The notes beneath the pieces were generated by a model. It was given only the letters and a program-made list of their open reading frames with translations. It was not told where the DNA came from and ran no database searches. Shown piece by piece: positions 9,731-61,665 of a stretch of 64,000 nucleotides of DNA. Location: IMG/VR virus record IMGVR_UViG_3300025872_000001. One strand, 5' to 3'. Both the position numbers and the translations under genes were made by a program. Position 1 is the stretch's first letter. Every line of letters begins with the position of its first letter. This DNA is from a virus.

Positions 9731-9752
9731 AAAACAGTGTAAATTTAAAATT

Positions 9753-41119: not shown

Positions 41120-44100
41120 TTACTCAAGCGACAGTATAGAACCTCTAGAGTCGAGCCATTCCGTTTGATCGCGGAATATCTCGGCTCTTTCATTTGGTCT
41201 GATAATAGAGATCTCATTTCCTTCTGCATCCAATATATGTAGATTATGAGATGATCCTCTGTTCACGATTACAACGGAGTTGCCCTCTGCAACATCTGCT
41301 GGCATAACAATAGAGGAGTCTGTTCTTGGGGTAATTAAATTAATAGAATTCAATTTATCTTCTGGAAGCTCATATTCAGACTCTATTCTTTTTGCTTTTC
41401 CGCCACTACCTATTATTGTTGTGCCGTTGTATGTAAATTTTACTCCAATTGTTGCTGATTCTGCACCAATAGCAGTCCAATTGACGCTTGAGCCTAAAGC
41501 ATCTATTTGATAGTTAGCCCCATTTACAAGAGAATTAGTATGAATATTAAATGAATCTTGATCTTCATTTCTGCCCCCATCTACTTCAAATCGATTTGCT
41601 ACTGGATTAATTCTTTCAACAGGTTCAATTTCAAGATAACCACTTACGACATTTGAAATATCACCGGGACCAAAATCATCCCAAGGTCTAAATCTAAAAT
41701 AGTGCCATTTACCAGTTTCTAGACCTTCTGCTAATCTAATTGTATTTACATAACTTCTTGTTTTGTCGAGATTGACATAATTAAATTGATTGGTATGATC
41801 TACAATATCAGCTTCAAACACTCTTTTTACTTGTGCATCGCTACCGTTTATTGCTGTTCCATTGTATTCGAATTCTGTTCCAATAATAGGTGTTTGAGAT
41901 GGGCATCCAATAGCTTTCCAATTTACGCTGGAGCCGACATTCATAATTTCATACCAATTTCCATTAGCCATACCAGTATGATCAATAATTTCTGGAAAAC
42001 CTTGTCCAGTATATACATCAACGCTATAAACATCTTTATTTGATGTAGTATTATAACAGTTAAATATAATTTGGCCTTTTGAAACATCCTCTGGCAAAAC
42101 TGTAAATGAAATACCAGAAAATCCTGTTGTATTCGCAGCAGTTATAGTTTCGAGGTTGGCAATTCCAAGTGGATTTCCTTTAGTAGAGGGAACTTTTCTG
42201 CCCTCTCCACTACCATAAGCAGTAAAATGTTCTAGTCCCCAATCCTCAATCGATGTAGCCTTATCTACATTATCATTATAGTATTTGATTAAATCTTCAT
42301 AAGCATAAACATAGGCTTCATAATCAGCTTCTCCAGTTCCTTTATAATTAATTCCTACTCCAGCGCGCTCTGCCGTAGAAGTTATTCCAGTTCCATTATA
42401 ACCAGTTGCTGTTAAAAATGCTCCAGAAATATCCCTAAATGTTAATGGAACAGAATCATCTTCACTTCTAATTAATTCTCCATTTAAATCTCTAACTCCA
42501 GATCCAGATATTGTTCCTGTAGTAGTATTGTTTTCTGGATTCCATAATGCTATTCCAGTAAATGTGCTGTGGCCATAGTAGCCAGAAAGCACATAATACG
42601 GAGAGTTTTGATAAGAATCAATTACTTGAATCTTGTTATAATATGGATATTGATTATGGGCATAAAATGTACCTGTTTTAGTTAGGTTAGTATTATCTTG
42701 TACTATTACTCTTAAACCAAGTGATCTTGAGTATTCTACATTCTTTGCAGATTCAGTTTCTCTACTGAATAACTCTCCATTCATTTTTTGAGTTACTGTA
42801 TAAGATAAACCTTGATAATTTTCCTCTTGTTTTAATATTTGTCCAGCATTATCCAATATTTGAACTGTAACTTTTTGAGGAAGATCAACGAATGGATTTT
42901 CTAAAATTTGTTCCTTGGTTGACATAACCCCACCAGTAGGATCTATATATTTCCATCTGAAGGTAACATCCGCAGATGTAAAGTTGCCAACTCCCGCTCC
43001 AGCATAAAGTCCTCCTCCTAAATGAGCGATTTGATAATTAACTGAATTTTTATCAGCAGTATCAATTGTAAAGCCACTTGGTATTGTTGAAGTTATAGTA
43101 TAACCTCCTTGACCAGTTAAGGTCGCACTCGGCAATATGATTGCCCCAGTTTGGGCAGCGTCAATTGATAATAATTTATATAAAACCCCTTGAGAATAAA
43201 CATCAAAATCATACTGACCATAAGCTCCGCTTATTGGAACAGTTAATGTAGTTATGCCAGAAGCTACTGTATAAGCATCAGTTATAGAATCATATTCATC
43301 TCCAAGAGTTGAATAATCTGGTCTACTGACATAAACCTTGTAGCCTACAATTGGGCTACTTGTGCCTGACCAAATAATATGGACTCCAGTTCCTCCATAT
43401 CCGCTTACACTAACTATTCCAGATGGAGGATTTGGCTTGACGACTACATCGTATGGCCCTTGAACATAATAGCTAGGCGAAGTATCCATCATATCTTTTT
43501 CGATGAATTCTTCTTTGTCGCGCAAATATTCTATTCCTACAACAGAATATTGATTAGCCTCTTCTTCTTTTGTCGCAATAGTTTTATAAAGTTTCGGTTC
43601 TATTCCAGAGCCACTCAAAACATAAAGAGAACCTTCTGATATTAAATCAAGATTTTTAGGAGTTGTATCTACAGTTAGATTATAAAATCCTTTTTCATAT
43701 CCAGTTCCGTATATCAAACCGCTATAACCAATTCCATTTTCTTGAGCAAGTAATCTTAAATCACTTTGGCCCAAAGTCCCACCTCCAACATAAACATTTA
43801 AACCAAGAGCATTAAAAGCATTAGATACATGGGTAGATGTTAATGCTGAATTTGTATATATTTTTTCAGATCCGTAAAATCCTTTTGGCATTCCAACTGT
43901 ATAATATCCTAAAGAATTACCTTTTGACCATTTTGACTGAGCGGCATTACCATCAATAAAATCACTAGTAAATGCTAAAGCTGATTTTGTATGAGCTTTT
44001 GTGCAAATATAAGTTTCTGAATTATACTTGATAATATTACCAACTGCATACTCTCTGCCAGATTGCCATTCTTCGTAATTTGATTCGGCGCGATTACCAA

Positions 44101-46906
44101 AGTCAGCTTGAACAAATGTGTAATATGGTCTTAATCTTGTAAAGGCAAGAAGATCTCTATAAGTAAATACTAAACTTCCAGTATCATTTGAAGTTTTAGA
44201 TGCACGCTCAAGTATTCTGTAATTGCTATTATTGGCGCTTGTATCATTTTTTATTAAAGCGGCTAAATAACTACCAGCAGTAGCACTATCAGCGCCTAAT
44301 TTATAAATTTCTGTAGCAGCATAAGATGCAAATACAGATGGTACAGCTGTCTGCCAAGCAATTGGACTTCCATTAGATACTATTACAATCACTTCTCCAT
44401 TGTTTCTTCCTTCTATAAATGAGCCTATATCCGCTAAAGATGCACTAGTTGAACTTTGAGCAACAAAAGCTCCAGCGGAATTTAAAGCTATGGCTGTTAA
44501 GTTTGATGCCGTAGTTCCTCTCTGAACTCCATCTACATTAACTATACCATTTGATCCAGAAATATAACAAGTCCAATTAGGTTCAGAACCGATTACTTGA
44601 CCAGTTCCATCGATACCAGAAAAATTAATATCAATCTCCAAATCTGATAAAACTCCAGATACATTAGAGAATGTTAATGAATCCCATTTAGGATTGCCGG
44701 TTGCTACAGTATGTTCTGGGAAATAGTAAACCTCTCCAGTTAAAATAGTTTGACCAGTATATGACGCCCCAGATATTCTACCCTCTACTGGATAAACGTC
44801 AGTTACTACTGACTGCAATAGAAAATCACCAGTAAGTGTTAATGTGGCCCCATAAGAATTATCAACAACAGTATGTAAATTAAATTTTCGTGTTTGTCTT
44901 TGCCTTCTAGCTCTAATTTGCTCAAGCGTTCCAGTAAATCCTCCGTCGCTTCCAGTTAATGAATTTAAATCTGAAACAGAAAAATTTCCAGATGGAACAT
45001 GAATATATATTCCAGAAGCTAAATCTGGATGGAATTCTCCATCAATTTTAATTGTTTTAGCGTTTTCATCTATTTCAAGTATTCTTCCAAACGATCTTCC
45101 TACGTTTCTTACCTCATCGCTTACTCCGAAAATATCTCCTGGTTGTAGATATGCGCCCTCTAATCCCGCAGTAAATGTAACGGTATCAGATTCAAACATT
45201 GAACTGCATATAATATATCTACCAATTCGTCTTGCTTCTGATCGTGAAGTGCAGCCAGCAGCATTAACTTTAAATGGATTTAAACCAAAATTTCTTATTC
45301 CATCGACATCTTCAATGAATTCAACTTTAGTTTTAAAGTCATCGTACTTATCGTTGTAAGTTATTTCTACACTTGTGTATCTTTTGTTTTTAGCTGTTTC
45401 AGTATATACAAATGCTCCATCTTTAACATTAACATTGGCAAAATAAATGATTGGATCTTTTTTCTTGTCAGCGAAGAATGAAAAACCTTCAGTGTTCCAA
45501 TATATAATTCCTTTAAATATTGCCGCAACATCTTTAAGGATATTGTATGCTTCGTCTTTATTATAATAAATAATATTGCATGTATATCTTGGCTCAAGAC
45601 CGCCCTTGCCATCAGGAACGCCTCTAAATCTGCCATCATCATCTACGGCGTCACAATATCTACCAATATCATATAAAGTCCATTTATCTATTGAACTGTT
45701 GTCAATATAATTACCAAGACCATAATTATAATCAGTAACAATATCATATAAAATCCAAGCTGGATTATCTGTCCACGCTAATTTAAATGTGCCATCCCAA
45801 TCTCCGTAATAAATTTTATTACTATCATAAAAGTTTCTATCGCAGAATTGTTGTAACTTTATATCAGAATCGCTGGCGAGATTAAATTTTGCACCTCCAG
45901 TGTCTTCAGCTAATTCCCTTAAAGTTCTAGTACCAGAAAAATCAGGATCAGCGTGGAGATAATAAAATTGAATTCCAGCCTCTCTCGCTCTGTTCAATGA
46001 GATTTGATAAGTTTCTGGAGCCATTACTTCTGGTATATGACCAGAAAAATATATAACCTTTCTAACAGTATTGACCCAAAGTTTTTCTGTTACAGCTTCT
46101 TCTCCACTTTTACCGACTTCATCCGTTATACTAAATTGGGTTTTTCTAAAAAAGAAATTCGCAATACTTGTTTCTGAAGGATCGACTGTAGGCGATAAAG
46201 GAGATGCTGCTAGGGCATCGTCAAGTAATTTAATTAAATTTGTTTGATTTGCGCCGGTAGAATCTGGCGTCTCCATCTCAGAAAAGTTACTTGAAGAATA
46301 ATATGTAAAATTATTTATGGTCTCTTTTGTTGCTTCATTAACAATGAAATTAGTATTATTTGCTGCTGTTTGCCATATAGAAAATCTTACATTAGTATAG
46401 CCAGAAACAAGTTTAAAGATAAACTCTTTTAAATTTCTTCTTAATAATTTTCTGCTTCGTTCATTCATGTTTTGGTCAACCATGAATATAACATCAAGAG
46501 TATTTGGGTTTGCAGGATAATCTGGATTTGCAAAAACATATCTCCTATCTAAACCATTACCACCAAGAGGAAAATAGTTAGAAGGCACTTTAACCTTCTT
46601 CATTTTAACATCATACTGTCTTTCTGGGATACTGCTAAATGTTCTAGAATCAAATTTTAATCCAACATGCGCGGTTAATGGATAAGAAAAGTTTCTGTCT
46701 ACAACTTCATATATTCCATCTAATGAAACATCTCTTTTTACCAAAGGTGAAATAGTTTCTGGACTTCTCTTTTCTATAGTAATGTATCTATCTCTTCCAT
46801 TTTCCGAATCTGGAAGAACAAGTTCGTTTGATGTAATTAGCCCAGCTTGACTAACAATATTTGTATCAATTGTGTCGTCTTCTGTATTGTCGCCGTTTGG
46901 AGTCAT
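41120..46906 (-). CDS. Tail tip/host-specificity protein J-like, main C-terminal part (with vWA and other insertions)
   Basis: YP.TA.VG...DS..F, VKVPSNY, Y.G.WDGTFK.AWTDNPAWILYD, YGLG, IDKW.LY.IG.YCD, EPRYTCN, GCTSRSEARR.GR. Confidence 0.9.
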   Translation of the reverse strand: MTPNGDNTEDDTIDTNIVSQAGLITSNELVLPDSENGRDRYITIEKRSPETISPLVKRDVSLDGIYEVVDRNFSYPLTAHVGLKFDSRTFSSIPERQYDVKMKKVKVPSNYFPLGGNGLDRRYVFANPDYPANPNTLDVIFMVDQNMNERSRKLLRRNLKEFIFKLVSGYTNVRFSIWQTAANNTNFIVNEATKETINNFTYYSSSNFSEMETPDSTGANQTNLIKLLDDALAASPLSPTVDPSETSIANFFFRKTQFSITDEVGKSGEEAVTEKLWVNTVRKVIYFSGHIPEVMAPETYQISLNRAREAGIQFYYLHADPDFSGTRTLRELAEDTGGAKFNLASDSDIKLQQFCDRNFYDSNKIYYGDWDGTFKLAWTDNPAWILYDIVTDYNYGLGNYIDNSSIDKWTLYDIGRYCDAVDDDGRFRGVPDGKGGLEPRYTCNIIYYNKDEAYNILKDVAAIFKGIIYWNTEGFSFFADKKKDPIIYFANVNVKDGAFVYTETAKNKRYTSVEITYNDKYDDFKTKVEFIEDVDGIRNFGLNPFKVNAAGCTSRSEARRIGRYIICSSMFESDTVTFTAGLEGAYLQPGDIFGVSDEVRNVGRSFGRILEIDENAKTIKIDGEFHPDLASGIYIHVPSGNFSVSDLNSLTGSDGGFTGTLEQIRARRQRQTRKFNLHTVVDNSYGATLTLTGDFLLQSVVTDVYPVEGRISGASYTGQTILTGEVYYFPEHTVATGNPKWDSLTFSNVSGVLSDLEIDINFSGIDGTGQVIGSEPNWTCYISGSNGIVNVDGVQRGTTASNLTAIALNSAGAFVAQSSTSASLADIGSFIEGRNNGEVIVIVSNGSPIAWQTAVPSVFASYAATEIYKLGADSATAGSYLAALIKNDTSANNSNYRILERASKTSNDTGSLVFTYRDLLAFTRLRPYYTFVQADFGNRAESNYEEWQSGREYAVGNIIKYNSETYICTKAHTKSALAFTSDFIDGNAAQSKWSKGNSLGYYTVGMPKGFYGSEKIYTNSALTSTHVSNAFNALGLNVYVGGGTLGQSDLRLLAQENGIGYSGLIYGTGYEKGFYNLTVDTTPKNLDLISEGSLYVLSGSGIEPKLYKTIATKEEEANQYSVVGIEYLRDKEEFIEKDMMDTSPSYYVQGPYDVVVKPNPPSGIVSVSGYGGTGVHIIWSGTSSPIVGYKVYVSRPDYSTLGDEYDSITDAYTVASGITTLTVPISGAYGQYDFDVYSQGVLYKLLSIDAAQTGAIILPSATLTGQGGYTITSTIPSGFTIDTADKNSVNYQIAHLGGGLYAGAGVGNFTSADVTFRWKYIDPTGGVMSTKEQILENPFVDLPQKVTVQILDNAGQILKQEENYQGLSYTVTQKMNGELFSRETESAKNVEYSRSLGLRVIVQDNTNLTKTGTFYAHNQYPYYNKIQVIDSYQNSPYYVLSGYYGHSTFTGIALWNPENNTTTGTISGSGVRDLNGELIRSEDDSVPLTFRDISGAFLTATGYNGTGITSTAERAGVGINYKGTGEADYEAYVYAYEDLIKYYNDNVDKATSIEDWGLEHFTAYGSGEGRKVPSTKGNPLGIANLETITAANTTGFSGISFTVLPEDVSKGQIIFNCYNTTSNKDVYSVDVYTGQGFPEIIDHTGMANGNWYEIMNVGSSVNWKAIGCPSQTPIIGTEFEYNGTAINGSDAQVKRVFEADIVDHTNQFNYVNLDKTRSYVNTIRLAEGLETGKWHYFRFRPWDDFGPGDISNVVSGYLEIEPVERINPVANRFEVDGGRNEDQDSFNIHTNSLVNGANYQIDALGSSVNWTAIGAESATIGVKFTYNGTTIIGSGGKAKRIESEYELPEDKLNSINLITPRTDSSIVMPADVAEGNSVVIVNRGSSHNLHILDAEGNEISIIRPNERAEIFRDQTEWLDSRGSILSLE

Positions 46907-56384: not shown

Positions 56385-56405
56385 ATAAATTGTGTAATGT
56401 ATATT

Positions 56406-56861
56406 GTGAAAACTATCACATGTATATTACAAAGCTGCTTGCTTTTCACTAGCTTATGTGCTAGTGATATGGTTCATTCTTTCAAGTCTCCAGCATTCAA
56501 TGGAGTAAACTTTTCTGGTCACGCTATTACAATTGAAAACCTAGCTAGAACTAGAAAACAGTCAATAAAAGATATTGCTAAGTCTGAACTTGAGCAAGAA
56601 AAAATATTAGCCCAAAATACACCATTAAATAATTTTATAAATAACTTACAGGCAAGGATTTACTCTCAACTTGCCTCTCAAGTTACAGATCAAATTTTTA
56701 ATGCTGGAGGCGCCAATTTTGGCATCATTAATTTACAAGGAGGAGCAACCGTTACATGGCAAAAAAACGGAGATATGGTTACTCTTTTCATTGTTGACCC
56801 CGCCACAGGAAACACAACCCAAATACAAGTTCCTGTTGGCGTCTTAGCTCCAACTCCTTAA
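56406..56861 (+). CDS. csgF: Curli assembly protein CsgF-like
   Basis: Signal peptide then SDMVHSFKSPAFNG (compare CsgF M.F.F.NP.FGG), F...LQ.RIYSQL, D..TG.TT.I.VP. Confidence 0.8.
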   Translation: MKTITCILQSCLLFTSLCASDMVHSFKSPAFNGVNFSGHAITIENLARTRKQSIKDIAKSELEQEKILAQNTPLNNFINNLQARIYSQLASQVTDQIFNAGGANFGIINLQGGATVTWQKNGDMVTLFIVDPATGNTTQIQVPVGVLAPTP

Positions 56862-57664
56862 TGAGATGGCTGGCAAGCCTCTTATTGCTTAGTTTAGTTG
56901 GATGTGCGTCTCTGCCAGAGAGACCAAATATCATAACTTTACCTAAATTGCAGACTTCTCCGCTTGAGGAGCAGCTTAAAAATTTACCTACGCCAGATAA
57001 CCCCAGAATGACAATCGCAGTTTATGCGTTTGCCGATAAAACTGGACAGCGCAAGACAGTTGATGCTTATGCTTCCTTTTCGTCAGCCGTAACTCAGGGT
57101 GCAGAAAGTTGGCTGATAGATGCATTGCGAATTGCAGGAGATGGCAAATGGTTCCAAGTTTTGGAACGCTCTAATCTAGATAATGTTATAAGAGAACGCC
57201 AACTTATAAATCAAACTAGAGAATCATTTCAAGGCAAAGACGCAGAAAAACTTATGCCGATGTTATTTGCTGGCATAATTGCAGAAGGAGGAATAATTGG
57301 CTACGATACTAATATTTTAACTGGTGGTGCCGGTGCCAGCCTTCTTGGTATATCTGGCAGCACTCAATATCGCAAAGATGTTGTAACTGTTTCATTACGA
57401 TTTGTCAGCGTTCAAACTGGCGAAATCATTCTGAGCGTTGCAGTTACAAAAACAATTTCCAGTGTGGCAGCTTCGGGCAACTTGTTTAAGTTCTATGAAC
57501 ATGGAGTAACTCCAGCGGAATCAGAGCTTGGTTTCACTGCAAACGAACCCAATACTATTGCGGTTAGAAGTGCGATAGAACAAGCAGTAATAGAAATCAT
57601 TAAACAAGGTCAAGAGTGTAAACTTTGGAAACTAAAACCTCAACCCCAAAACAATGAAAAATAA
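56861..57664 (+). CDS. csgG: Curli secretion channel lipoprotein CsgG
   Basis: Lipobox LVGC; AVY.F.DKTGQRK, S.AVTQGA, WF.VLER..L....RERQ.I, EGGI.GYD.N, Y..D.VTV.LR.V.V.TGE, NEP. Confidence 0.92.
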   Translation: MRWLASLLLLSLVGCASLPERPNIITLPKLQTSPLEEQLKNLPTPDNPRMTIAVYAFADKTGQRKTVDAYASFSSAVTQGAESWLIDALRIAGDGKWFQVLERSNLDNVIRERQLINQTRESFQGKDAEKLMPMLFAGIIAEGGIIGYDTNILTGGAGASLLGISGSTQYRKDVVTVSLRFVSVQTGEIILSVAVTKTISSVAASGNLFKFYEHGVTPAESELGFTANEPNTIAVRSAIEQAVIEIIKQGQECKLWKLKPQPQNNEK

Positions 57665-58460
57665 ACTAATCGCGTTGTTTGTAACGTTGGTTTCCCTCGC
57701 TTTCGGGCAAAACCAACTTTACGTCAACCAGATCACAACCTCGGGAAATACAACCTTTGTACAGGTTGGATCTCTCAATAAAGTAGGTTCGTCTCAAACA
57801 CCCAGCAACATCACTGGAGACAATATCCTTTTCGAAATGAGACAAATGGGAAACAACAATACAACTGATTTCTCAATCATCGATGCCAACAATCTAAAAT
57901 TAGTTTCAGTATTCAATGGCAATACAAATACTCAAAAAATCTTTATGAGCGGCGCAAATAACAATATGAATTTACTGTTTAATGGAAACAATAATTCATT
58001 TCTGCTTAATAAAGATGTGACTGTTGACCATACATCCGATTCGGATACAACAAAAGCTACTGTTAGTTACAGCGACTTCAAGTTCAACGTAACTGGCAGT
58101 TCAAACGTATTTAAATTCGGCATTGAGAACGGCAAATATAATTATATTGATTATGAAGTAACTGGTAGCTCAAATACTATTAAATCTACCCAGATCGGTT
58201 TAGTAGCCGGTGGCTCAACAGCTAAAGATGGTCATGAACAAACTGTTACAATTACAGGTGGTTCTAATGATTTGACCATTTACCAAGCTGGATTGGAGAA
58301 ACAACTTTTTAATTATAATTTAACTGGTAGCAACAATACAGTTCGCATTGTTCAAACCACCACAGCATACTCACCATTAATGACGTTAAATACAAATAAT
58401 CAAAATGGTGTAGCTGGAGCGGCACAAACAACAGCGACAATTGTTCCTCCGACTAATTAA
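57654..58460 (+). CDS. Secreted curlin-like repeat protein (CsgA/CsgB-like)
   Basis: Signal peptide; repeated Q.G..N and V.G.SN beta-arc units; Asn/Gln/Thr-rich. Confidence 0.68.
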   Translation: MKNKLIALFVTLVSLAFGQNQLYVNQITTSGNTTFVQVGSLNKVGSSQTPSNITGDNILFEMRQMGNNNTTDFSIIDANNLKLVSVFNGNTNTQKIFMSGANNNMNLLFNGNNNSFLLNKDVTVDHTSDSDTTKATVSYSDFKFNVTGSSNVFKFGIENGKYNYIDYEVTGSSNTIKSTQIGLVAGGSTAKDGHEQTVTITGGSNDLTIYQAGLEKQLFNYNLTGSNNTVRIVQTTTAYSPLMTLNTNNQNGVAGAAQTTATIVPPTN

Positions 58461-59611
58461 TGAAAATAGCCGCTATATTTTTATTAGCGGCTTTATCTTG
58501 CTTCGCCTCTTCTGGTCAACTTACTGAAATAACTGGTCCGACGCAAATAACTAGAAAGAGCGAAAAAATCGAAGGTAAAGTCAGCGTTGGCGTCGAAATG
58601 AACGACGTAATAGAAACATTGCGAGGCCGCGCTGGCATTACTTTTGAAGACAATACTAAAGTTCAGATCACAGAATTTTCCAAGTTGAGGATAGACGAGT
58701 TTGTCTATGACCCCGCCAGTGGTAAAGGCAAACTGAATATGAAAGCAACATCTGGCACAGTTAGATATGCGTCAGGTCTAATAGCAAAGAATAGCAGAGA
58801 AAATATAAAAGTCCAAACTCCTACCGCAGTTGTTTCGGTTAGAGGTACAGACTTTTCAATGACAGTATCGGAGGACGGCAAGAGTTTAATTGTTCTTTTG
58901 CCGTCCATTCCGTTAGCATCTGGCATCAAGCCTGTCGTTGGTTCTATTGAAGTTGAAAATGCTGCTGGTAAAGTTGTTATGACACAACCATATCAGGCAA
59001 CCTTTGTCAACTCTAGTTTTAACGCTCCAACCGCTCCCGTCATTTTAAATTTCCAAGACGAATCGAAGATCAACAATATGATATTGCTTGAATCGCCCAA
59101 GTCAGTTACCCAAGGCAGTAAAGTGACCAAAAAGGAAACAAAAGAGAAAACTGATGACGGAAAGAAAGATGACGAGCCAAATAAAAAGAAAGAAACTAAA
59201 ACAGAGGTAGCTCAGGTAGAAAAGCCTAGCGAAGCTCCAGCGGAAACAGTTGTTGCACAAAATACACAGACTGAAACGCCAACTCAAGTTCCAGAAACTA
59301 AACTGGATATTAATGCAATCCAGCCGCAAGTTGTGCAAGCTGCGGCGGAAGAAGCAGTGGCAAAATCAACTCAACCTGCAACCCCAGCAGTTACAATAGC
59401 GCAACCCACCGCAACTTTAACTACAAACTTAGCTGTTAGCAAAGGATTTAAATCTAACGATGGCAAAACTGCCACACTTGAATTGCGAACAGAAAAAAGC
59501 GTAATAGTCTATACTGCTAGACTCAGCGACAACGTAAGCGTCAACGTCAACGGTGAGCCTTATGTATTAAATTTCGGAGAAAAATCAAAAGTAAACATTA
59601 CTCAAAAATGA
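58460..59611 (+). CDS. Secreted/periplasmic FecR-domain protein
   Basis: Signal peptide; D.I.T..G...ITF.DNT.V.I...S.L.ID.FVYDP, V.TPTA...VRGTDF; low-complexity stalk. Confidence 0.85.
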   Translation: MKIAAIFLLAALSCFASSGQLTEITGPTQITRKSEKIEGKVSVGVEMNDVIETLRGRAGITFEDNTKVQITEFSKLRIDEFVYDPASGKGKLNMKATSGTVRYASGLIAKNSRENIKVQTPTAVVSVRGTDFSMTVSEDGKSLIVLLPSIPLASGIKPVVGSIEVENAAGKVVMTQPYQATFVNSSFNAPTAPVILNFQDESKINNMILLESPKSVTQGSKVTKKETKEKTDDGKKDDEPNKKKETKTEVAQVEKPSEAPAETVVAQNTQTETPTQVPETKLDINAIQPQVVQAAAEEAVAKSTQPATPAVTIAQPTATLTTNLAVSKGFKSNDGKTATLELRTEKSVIVYTARLSDNVSVNVNGEPYVLNFGEKSKVNITQK

Positions 59612-61665
59612 GCAAATATAAATTATATTCTTTCTTGTTTTCATTCGCAGTTCTGCTGGGACTTGTTGCACTGCGCGTGAACGACCCATTTTTTATTGAG
59701 ACTGCTAGACTCAAAACTATTGATTATTATCAACGAACCCAACCAAAGCAAATAAGTGAAAACATTGTTGTGGTTGAGATAGACGAAAAGACTTTGGACA
59801 AAGAAGGTCAGTGGCCCTTTCCAAGACAAACGATTGCAAAAGCAATCAAAAAAGCATTCGATAACCAAGCGCAACTTGTTGTGCTGCCAGTTATCTTCGC
59901 AGAGAAAGATAGATTCAATGGCGACGACGAATTAACAGAAGTGTTAAAAACTTATCCTGTAATCTTGAGTCAGTCTGCCGCAAATAAAGGAAAAGGTCAA
60001 CCCGTTCCAAGAGGAGTTGCGACAATAGGAGAGAACATAAATGATTGGTTATTTGAATACAATGCGGCGATTGGACCGACAAAACAATTAGGTGAAGCTG
60101 CGGCTGGCGTTGGAATGCTTCTAACTGCACCAGAAGTTGATGGCGTAGTTAGAAGATTACCCCTAATCGTACAAATAAACAAAGAATTATATCCAACTAT
60201 ACCACTTGAGATGCTGCGCGTTTTGGCTGGCGATCCAAGCTACCAAGCTAGAATCAATGAAGCTGGAGTGGATGCAGTTAGAATACCCCAATTTAAAACA
60301 ATAAAAACAGATGAGCATGGGCGCGTCTGGATTAATTTTAAATACGAATTCCCATCCTTATCATTTGCTGATGCAGACTGGAGCAAGGTAAAAGACAAGG
60401 TTGTTATGCTTGCCCCTACCGCAGAGGGGTTATCAAACACTGTTGCAACCTCCGTAAATATAAGATATGGTTACGAAATACCGTTGTTTGTAGCTCAAAT
60501 GGTAGCAGATGACGCTAGACTAGAAAGACCCAGCCAATTTAATTTATATGAACTTTTGTATGGATCATTAGCAGGATTAGCCGTAATACTAATGCTTATT
60601 AGCGGACCTTATTGGTTAGCTGGGATTTTTTATGCAGTATTAGTTGCGGCTCCAGTTAAATTCGGATTCATGTCATTTGCCAAAGGTCAATTATTCGACT
60701 ATAGTTGGATAATTATTACGGTATCAGTGTTGTTTATGATCTCCGCTTTCTTGAGATTCATTAGCGAGTTCAAACAAAAACAATTAATTAAAAAACAATT
60801 CGGCACTTATCTTGCCCCAGCACTCGTAGAAAAGTTGCAGAAAAACCCAGGTTTGTTGCGTCTAGGTGGAGATGAACGCGAGCTTTCGATTATGTTTACC
60901 GATGTTCGCGGCTTCACTACAATCTCTGAACACTACGGTAAAAACGTTCAAGGCTTGACTATGATCATGAATAGGTACATGACTGCAATGACCGAATCGA
61001 TATTAAAAAATGACGGCACTTTAGACAAATACATTGGAGATGCACAAATGGCTTTTTGGAACGCTCCGCTTGACGACGCTAATCACGCCAAAAATGCTGT
61101 AAAGACAGCATTAGAGATGCTCAAGCGTCTCGACTCTTTCAATGAAGAAATCTCAAAAGAAGGCGTGCCGCCATTCGGCATGGGACTCGGAATCAATACT
61201 GGGAGCGTTGTCGTTGGTAACATGGGTAGTACACAGCGTTTTGATTATACTTGCTTGGGCGACCATGTTAATCTCGCCTCTAGATTAGAAGGGCAGTCCA
61301 AACCTTACGGAGTTAGAATTATAATCGGCCCCAGAACTGCCGAACATATTAAGAATGATTATCAAACACTTGAGTTGGATTTGATCGCGGTTAAAGGTAA
61401 AAAAGAAGGCGTCAAGATATTCACAGTTCTTGAAAACTCAATGGATGAAGATAAAATAAAACATATTTACAGAATGCACGATGGATTCCTTTGTGATTAC
61501 CGCACTCAGAAGTGGGACAATGCAATTGCTTTGGCAGAAAGCCTCCAGAAGAATAATCCAGAACTGAAAAAATATTACAGTATGATGATTGAAAGAATCG
61601 CGGAACTTCGTGAAAAAGGCTTGACAAAAGATTGGGATGGGGTATATGTTGCTACTTCAAAGTAG
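59608..61665 (+). CDS. CHASE2-domain membrane adenylate cyclase (class III)
   Basis: CHASE2 motifs VVEIDE..L...GQWP.PR and DGVVRR; transmembrane helices; cyclase motifs FTDVRGFT, DKYIGDA, G.GINTG, DYT.LGD.VNLASRLE (Lys/Asp ATP-specificity residues). Confidence 0.93.
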   Translation: MSKYKLYSFLFSFAVLLGLVALRVNDPFFIETARLKTIDYYQRTQPKQISENIVVVEIDEKTLDKEGQWPFPRQTIAKAIKKAFDNQAQLVVLPVIFAEKDRFNGDDELTEVLKTYPVILSQSAANKGKGQPVPRGVATIGENINDWLFEYNAAIGPTKQLGEAAAGVGMLLTAPEVDGVVRRLPLIVQINKELYPTIPLEMLRVLAGDPSYQARINEAGVDAVRIPQFKTIKTDEHGRVWINFKYEFPSLSFADADWSKVKDKVVMLAPTAEGLSNTVATSVNIRYGYEIPLFVAQMVADDARLERPSQFNLYELLYGSLAGLAVILMLISGPYWLAGIFYAVLVAAPVKFGFMSFAKGQLFDYSWIIITVSVLFMISAFLRFISEFKQKQLIKKQFGTYLAPALVEKLQKNPGLLRLGGDERELSIMFTDVRGFTTISEHYGKNVQGLTMIMNRYMTAMTESILKNDGTLDKYIGDAQMAFWNAPLDDANHAKNAVKTALEMLKRLDSFNEEISKEGVPPFGMGLGINTGSVVVGNMGSTQRFDYTCLGDHVNLASRLEGQSKPYGVRIIIGPRTAEHIKNDYQTLELDLIAVKGKKEGVKIFTVLENSMDEDKIKHIYRMHDGFLCDYRTQKWDNAIALAESLQKNNPELKKYYSMMIERIAELREKGLTKDWDGVYVATSK

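Follow-up and report, generated by a model that had tools for sequence, protein, structure and literature searches.

A viral curli secretion block, including a FecR-fold protein and a predicted CHASE2 receptor adenylate cyclase, in a further kind of phage backbone

The 64,000-nucleotide stretch of IMG/VR virus record IMGVR_UViG_3300025872_000001 analysed here (the window) carries at 56397-61665 five intact, consecutive plus-strand open reading frames (ORFs), which encode curli (type VIII) secretion proteins together with a FecR-fold protein and a predicted receptor adenylate cyclase (Table 1). An original prediction, made from the letters alone, had placed five overlapping genes here and named their products and cellular locations; the ORF coordinates, Pfam matches, profile comparison and structural models bear this out. 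In gene order, the genes meet at TAATG, an 11-nt overlap, TAATG and, between the FecR and cyclase genes, ATGA, and these overlapping junctions make translational coupling plausible. Four of the products carry predicted export signals; the predicted topology of the fifth places it in the inner membrane, with CHASE2 in the periplasm and a class IIIb cyclase domain in the cytoplasm. No Pfam match to CsgE, CsgC or CsgD was found at E up to 1 among the ten flanking ORFs, which cover about 4 kb on each side of the block. The five-gene block as such is not new; the window holds a new copy of the viral curli block known from marine SAR11/OM43 phages. New are the different phage backbone that carries it, the re-reading of the FecR protein as a predicted channel-associated fold, and the pairing of FecR with CHASE2 in bacteria at loci without curli genes.

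Table 1. Features of the five-gene block and the motif preceding it, in window positions.
Feature	Position	Strand	Basis or remark
GTGTAA motif	56392..56397	+	overlaps csgF ATG; candidate gene-start signal of this phage backbone
CsgF homologue, 154 aa	56397..56861	+	PF10614 1e-17
CsgG lipoprotein, 267 aa, predicted outer-membrane curli channel	56861..57664	+	PF03783 2e-51
Secreted curlin-repeat protein, 268 aa, predicted CsgA/B-like beta-solenoid	57654..58460	+	orthologue profile and AF2 model
Secreted FecR-fold protein, 383 aa	58460..59611	+	PF04773 8.5e-11
Predicted CHASE2 receptor adenylate cyclase, 685 aa	59608..61665	+	PF05226 3.6e-39; PF00211 (Guanylate_cyc) 1.4e-21

The two pore proteins resemble their bacterial counterparts over their full length. 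CsgF has a signal peptide (an alternative GTG start at 56406 is possible), its Pfam match spans positions 6-132 of 132, and in the alignment with Escherichia coli CsgF the N-terminal motif is conserved, as are the central helix and the C-terminal beta part. The N-terminal F-x-x-P-x-F-x-G motif, which binds CsgG, is likewise kept in the Methylophilales phage Melnitz and the Pelagibacter phage HTVC008M. CsgG is matched by E. coli CsgG structures over residues 9-262 (E 2.6e-43) and carries the lipobox LVGC, whose C15 is invariant in 18 phage homologues. With its lipoprotein signal and full-length domain it is a member of the CsgG curli channel family, from which pore formation and secretion are predicted.

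The product of the third gene has no Pfam match of its own and stays below the Curlin_rpt (PF07012) cut-off, which the orthologues from Melnitz and from one further locus (L143) exceed. Across 20 orthologues, the repeat units Q-x-G-x-x-N / T-G-x-S-N are invariant, and the profile built from them matches Pontibacter CsgA 8c50 (E 7e-13) and E. coli CsgA 8enq (1.4e-3). The AlphaFold2 (AF2) model is an all strand-turn-strand solenoid (predicted local distance difference test, pLDDT, 79.5). In an exhaustive VIA search of 48,161 chains, its best structural match was 8c50_A (Z 17.6, root-mean-square deviation 9.4, 205 aligned residues, 19% identity); it was this search alone that ranked curlin first, and Foldseek against the PDB gave no significant match. 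The beta-solenoid foreseen for this protein thus appears in both the model and its 8c50_A match, and we regard the product as a predicted array of tandem curlin repeats with putative amyloid polymerisation.

The FecR protein begins with a signal peptide and a FecR domain (residues 19-210), to which a disordered linker (215-322) joins a small beta domain at the C-terminus. The signal peptide is its sole clear hydrophobic segment, and a stretch at threshold (142-161) lies inside the folded FecR domain. The AF2 model of this domain (pLDDT about 90) matches the C-terminal cell-surface signalling domain (CCSSD) of PupR (6ovk_R, Z 15.2) and BDI_1681 (Z 14.2), and residues 15-110 match the MpIBP anchoring domain 5ix9 (VIA, Z 6.8, 73 of 76 residues), which has served as template for the LapA retention module. 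For the C-terminal domain, only weak Ig/FN3-like matches were obtained (Z about 3). This domain was also considered as a possible curlin repeat and dropped, as hhalign against the curlin profile gave a probability of 2% and only a terminal I-x-I-x-Q strand is common to both. Because the anti-sigma domain and transmembrane (TM) helix are absent, the protein is not a FecR-type anti-sigma regulator, and Pfam detected neither an extracytoplasmic function (ECF) sigma factor nor a TonB transducer among the flanking ORFs. A role as iron regulator, which has been attributed to the viral FecR protein (PMC9599517), is on this predicted architecture and model not justified, only the fold being common to both. 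That fold is known from proteins engaging the periplasmic side of outer-membrane channels, i.e., PupR (6ovk) and the LapA/MpIBP retention module (5ix9).

Hydropathy places a TM segment at residues 4-25 of the last product, followed by the periplasmic CHASE2 domain (PF05226 match at 16-312), three TM segments at 313-388 and a cytoplasmic class IIIb catalytic domain at 420-610. Class III cyclases rely on two Asp residues for metal binding, on Lys and Thr for adenine specificity, on Asn and Arg for the transition state and on a further Lys for phosphate binding, and the Lys/Thr pair marks the class IIIb adenylate cyclases. All seven residues are present (D432, K474, D478, T548, N555, R559 and K598), in line with the claim of intact catalytic motifs. 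In 25 phage homologues with identities down to about 35%, they are invariant except for T548 (T in 21, S in three, D in one) and N555 (N in 24, S in one). The nearest solved relatives are adenylate cyclases as well (6fht, CyaB 3r5g, 2w01 and 1wc1). The product is therefore predicted to be a class IIIb adenylate cyclase with the layout of a CHASE2 receptor.

Earlier work on the viral block is more extensive than the original prediction had stated. It had mentioned csgF and csgG in some myophages, which is correct but understates what is known, since the whole block including FecR and the cyclase was published in 2022 (PMC9599517). There, podo- and myo-pelagiphages were found to carry CsgF, CsgG, CsgA/B, FecR, often a second CsgA/B, and adenylate cyclase; the marine block was described as globally distributed and expressed in metatranscriptomes, and it was noted that FecR and the cyclase lie outside bacterial type VIII secretion system (T8SS) operons. 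Other reports discuss csgF/csgG of pelagimyophages and of Melnitz and leave FecR and the cyclase unmentioned (PMC7029224, PMC9004378). A literature search for CHASE2 did not have PMC9599517 among its results.

Relatives of the block genes are abundant in viral sequences. In IMG/VR they number more than 302 for CsgG and more than 596 for the cyclase, and the protein collection has 7334 for the cyclase; the top 120 protein homologues are all metagenome copies at least 63% identical, without bacterial context. The five-gene order proposed for a survey was retained in 75 of 75 loci that have over 5.5 kb of sequence upstream of the cyclase and in 90 of 90 that extend over 6.5 kb downstream from CsgG, where FecR and the cyclase always accompany csgFG. 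These loci are partly redundant and comprise only viral contigs with enough flank; such complete retention excludes a chance association. When 153 viral loci were scanned with profile hidden Markov models, 90 showed the five-gene block, 11 had a second curlin gene before the cyclase and five an inverted cyclase, while one further locus (L047) holds a full block with a split cyclase. The remaining loci are cut by contig ends, except for two cyclase loci (L096 and L104) with 1.5-2 kb of unmatched sequence upstream. A curlin substrate gene is found in every full copy. The block is one of the most widespread accessory modules of aquatic phages.

Two variants of the cyclase gene deserve mention here. 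In L047 (10791-13667), from a 297-kb IMG/VR record of a jumbo T4-like phage, the cyclase match falls into two pieces about 790 nt apart, which looks like an insertion; this record also has a gene for a cyclic nucleotide (cNMP)-binding protein near 97.2 kb, some 14 kb away from the block. L066, L070, L071, L072 and L078, a subgroup with jumbo T4-like phages among its members, have the cyclase encoded on the other strand, 1-1.5 kb downstream of FecR.

The window, which stems from a large, uncultured phage, differs from previously described carriers of the block in its backbone, which comprises genes for a DnaE-type polymerase, a DnaB helicase, UvsX, ribonucleotide reductase and lambda-like tail proteins. 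Searching with the polymerase and an 803-aa protease by tblastn revealed no close cultured phage, and the DnaE-type polymerase is missing from four long block-carrying T4-like records. Copies of the block also occur in jumbo T4-like phages of 197-364 kb. In a midpoint-rooted tree of CsgG plus cyclase from 71 loci, the copies in the window's backbone form one clade (support 1.0) nested among those borne by T4-like phages, which, given this root, fits one acquisition of the whole block. Gene content and tree together show what appears to be a transfer of the intact block into a third kind of phage backbone, and entry as a single unit argues for selection on all five genes together.

The same backbone is distinguished by the GTGTAA motif that had been pointed out in front of the block. 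Of its 15 plus-strand copies in the window, six lie within 20 nt 5' of an ORF start, as compared with 3% expected (P about 3e-6). Two close relatives (L003 and L007) retain it 14-15 nt before csgF, and T4-like copies are without it. Followed by an A/T-rich spacer, GTGTAA stands 2-17 nt before the starts of many plus-strand genes, with copies at 9737, 10439, 15472, 18409, 28576, 32212 and 56392. One possible interpretation is a promoter, or a signal for translation, that is peculiar to this backbone. A scan for sigma-70 promoters and terminators performed no better on the window than on shuffled sequences.

In bacteria, the two halves of the block lead separate lives. Only five of the best 80 CsgG loci from species-representative genomes have further genes of the block, in part or in full, and two of these five are short contigs that end before the cyclase. 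All five stem from metagenome-assembled genome (MAG) bins; four bins, all but that of L157, were tested, and T4-like capsid genes were found in three, while the remaining locus, L156, shows synteny with a viral contig. Scans of the MAG-contig flanks with PHROG were uninformative. One of these bins, a species-representative 'Rhodobacteraceae' MAG (G001, locus L155), yields nine matches to T4-type major capsid protein on nine contigs, and is therefore largely viral. The genuine bacterial CsgG loci among the 80 have neither FecR nor a cyclase within 10 kb.

CHASE2 cyclases, in turn, are common in Pseudomonadota (134 of 401 genomes at E 1e-60 or better). The 20 closest bacterial loci include eight with an adjoining FecR-domain gene and none with curli genes. 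In two of the four closest (L240 and L243), the FecR domain heads a cadherin/Ig protein of 1465-1646 aa, with RTX repeats in L240, and in another (L241) a gene for a LapG-type protease lies beside the FecR-domain gene. At L240 (10365-15302), L241 (10955-17088) and L243 (10560-14954), a giant LapA-like adhesin adjoins the CHASE2 adenylate cyclase; such loci may represent an undescribed link from adhesin to cyclic AMP (cAMP).

Taking these results together, we tentatively prefer a reading in which fibre export is joined to an envelope sensor with cAMP output, so that the block would be more than a pore. In an infected cell, CsgG and CsgF would form an outer-membrane channel, through which the curlin-repeat protein could be exported to build a beta-solenoid fibre. 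The FecR-fold protein might act as a periplasmic protein-binding adaptor, either on the CHASE2 domain or under the CsgG channel, for which the block encodes no CsgE. The cyclase would then convert the state of the envelope or of secretion into cAMP, which could act on Crp-type regulators of the host; this target is placed in the host because no receiver was found in the phage. Support comes from the family and fold assignments, the complete synteny, the start/stop overlaps, the conserved catalytic residues, the FecR-CHASE2 pairing in bacteria, the metatranscriptomic expression reported for the marine block (PMC9599517) and the precedent of NsrA, an outer-membrane protein that signals to CHASE2 cyclases in Sinorhizobium meliloti.

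Several observations speak against this interpretation. A cNMP-binding gene was found neither within about 4 kb of the block nor in five fragments of the lineage, and none turned up in the complete Melnitz and HTVC008M genomes either. A cAMP receptor in the host is an assumption. In S. meliloti, the FecR-domain gene smc02177 beside cyaD1 is not required for signal perception and is an output of the cascade (PMC5498481); it is the only bacterial FecR-domain neighbour of a CHASE2 cyclase that has been tested. Moreover, Buchholz et al. observed no clumping of Melnitz-infected cells (PMC9004378), and the match of the FecR domain to 5ix9 is modest. The original prediction had described a complete envelope-spanning circuit: its parts and their co-occurrence stand, but the circuit itself is an inference, with no cAMP receiver found and, in S. 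meliloti, a FecR neighbour that is dispensable for perception. Weighing the NsrA precedent against these last two points, the sensor chain is plausible but unproven.

The strongest competing explanation is that the block serves as a fibre factory only, with curli-like fibres that clump host cells ('sibling capture') or protect an infected cell from other phages, and with FecR and the cyclase tuning expression or physiology without sensing the envelope. This is the fibre function proposed previously (PMC7029224, PMC9599517), and a complete minimal T8SS of CsgG, CsgF and a curlin subunit is indeed present. It leaves unexplained, however, why the cyclase has a periplasmic sensor domain and why FecR and the cyclase are so strictly coupled to the pore genes, and the missing clumping in Melnitz (PMC9004378) counts against it as well. 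We consider it unlikely, though with a real chance of being right.

Alternatively, the block would make a pore and nothing else: CsgG, alone or together with CsgF, would be a gated channel that sets the time of lysis in the manner of pinholins or secretins or imports nutrients, and the other genes would be accessories. Structural modelling and synteny had led to this proposal for Melnitz (PMC9004378), and it would suit the missing periplasmic gate CsgE (about 4 kb tested on each side of the block). Yet the lipobox and the E. coli match mark CsgG as a predicted outer-membrane lipoprotein and not an inner-membrane holin, every full copy of the block brings a curlin substrate gene, and the window phage, Melnitz and HTVC008M all retain the CsgG-binding motif of CsgF, which contradicts the notion of a CsgF that has drifted away in phages. 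This explanation appears improbable. Least probable of all is a mere neighbourhood of two accessory modules with no relation to each other, the T8SS on the one hand and a FecR-CHASE2 cyclase pair for host takeover on the other. The genuine bacterial loci described above (among the best 80 for CsgG and the 20 closest for CHASE2) keep the two separate, but in viral contigs with enough flank they were never seen apart; they overlap translationally and have moved jointly between phage lineages (PMC9599517 and the tree presented here).

Returning to export coupled with sensing, a more specific form of it is conceivable, in which the FecR-fold protein would replace CsgE at the periplasmic mouth of CsgG and also bind CHASE2, so that the cyclase would report whether pore or fibre is occupied, pulled or blocked. 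Docking at the CsgG mouth is proposed by analogy with the same fold in other systems, where it sits beneath TonB-dependent transducers and beneath the TolC-like pore that serves LapA-type adhesins; we regard this form as a long shot. If it holds, the phage would possess a sensor of surface events, e.g., contact or arrival of a second phage, and would use cAMP to rewire the infected cell. In any case, the reading of FecR as an adaptor fold of the periplasm that pairs with a CHASE2 receptor is a concrete hypothesis open to ordinary bench tests, and it would bear on what CHASE2 domains sense in bacteria.

Elsewhere in the window, two regions stand out. The first 2 kb have 57% G+C, as compared with about 36% elsewhere, and positions 1-2585 contain several long ORFs that overlap one another on the two strands. 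This points to a gene that is repetitive or of odd composition and continues beyond the window. On the minus strand, a 1928-aa ORF (41120-46906) beside the lambda-like tail genes probably encodes a tail fibre or host-specificity protein.

Among known systems, the closest is the viral T8SS region of HTVC008M (KC465899) and Melnitz (MZ577097), which has the same five families in the same order as the window; tblastn identities to these phages are 35-39% for CsgF, 47% for CsgG, 22-26% for the curlin-repeat protein, 44-48% for FecR and 41-45% for the cyclase. All three lack CsgE, CsgD and CsgC. Melnitz and HTVC008M, however, have a second curlin gene between FecR and the cyclase, which the window copy does not, and no histidine kinase was detected upstream of the window copy, unlike in the published viral T8SS region. 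Furthermore, the published block resides in T4-like or HTVC023P-type phages, whereas the window has a DnaE polymerase and a lambda-like tail.

With the curli system of E. coli, the window block has in common the CsgG channel, the N-terminal CsgF motif and the predicted beta-solenoid of curlin repeats. It differs in the absence of CsgE, CsgC and CsgD, in the addition of a FecR-fold protein and a receptor cyclase, and in encoding one large curlin-like protein (about 8-9 repeats) where E. coli has the pair CsgA and CsgB. The FecR/PupR anti-sigma regulators share the fold of their periplasmic C-terminal signalling domain with the phage protein, but combine it with a cytoplasmic anti-sigma domain and a TM helix, where the phage protein instead has a cleavable signal peptide.

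A pairing of FecR domains with CHASE2 receptors has been reported in Burkholderia and Pseudomonas (PMC5192318) and in S. meliloti. In the Burkholderia BiofilmReg operon (LysM-FecR plus CHASE2 histidine kinase), an exported FecR-domain protein lies beside a CHASE2 receptor as in the phage; here the output is a kinase, the bacterial FecR/CHASE2 loci have no curli genes, and the FecR protein of the phage is small and stands alone. The S. meliloti gene smc02177, which encodes the FecR domain, is two locus tags from cyaD1 (SMc02176), and cyclase activity in this cascade becomes constitutive when CHASE2 is lost. The outer-membrane partner is NsrA and not CsgG, and the Crp-type receiver Clr, for which no phage counterpart was found, is encoded alongside. 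The route itself, in which an external signal passes via the outer-membrane beta-barrel NsrA to the CHASE2 adenylate cyclases CyaD1/CyaD2/CyaK and raises cAMP for Clr, is a precedent for the signalling predicted for the phage block.

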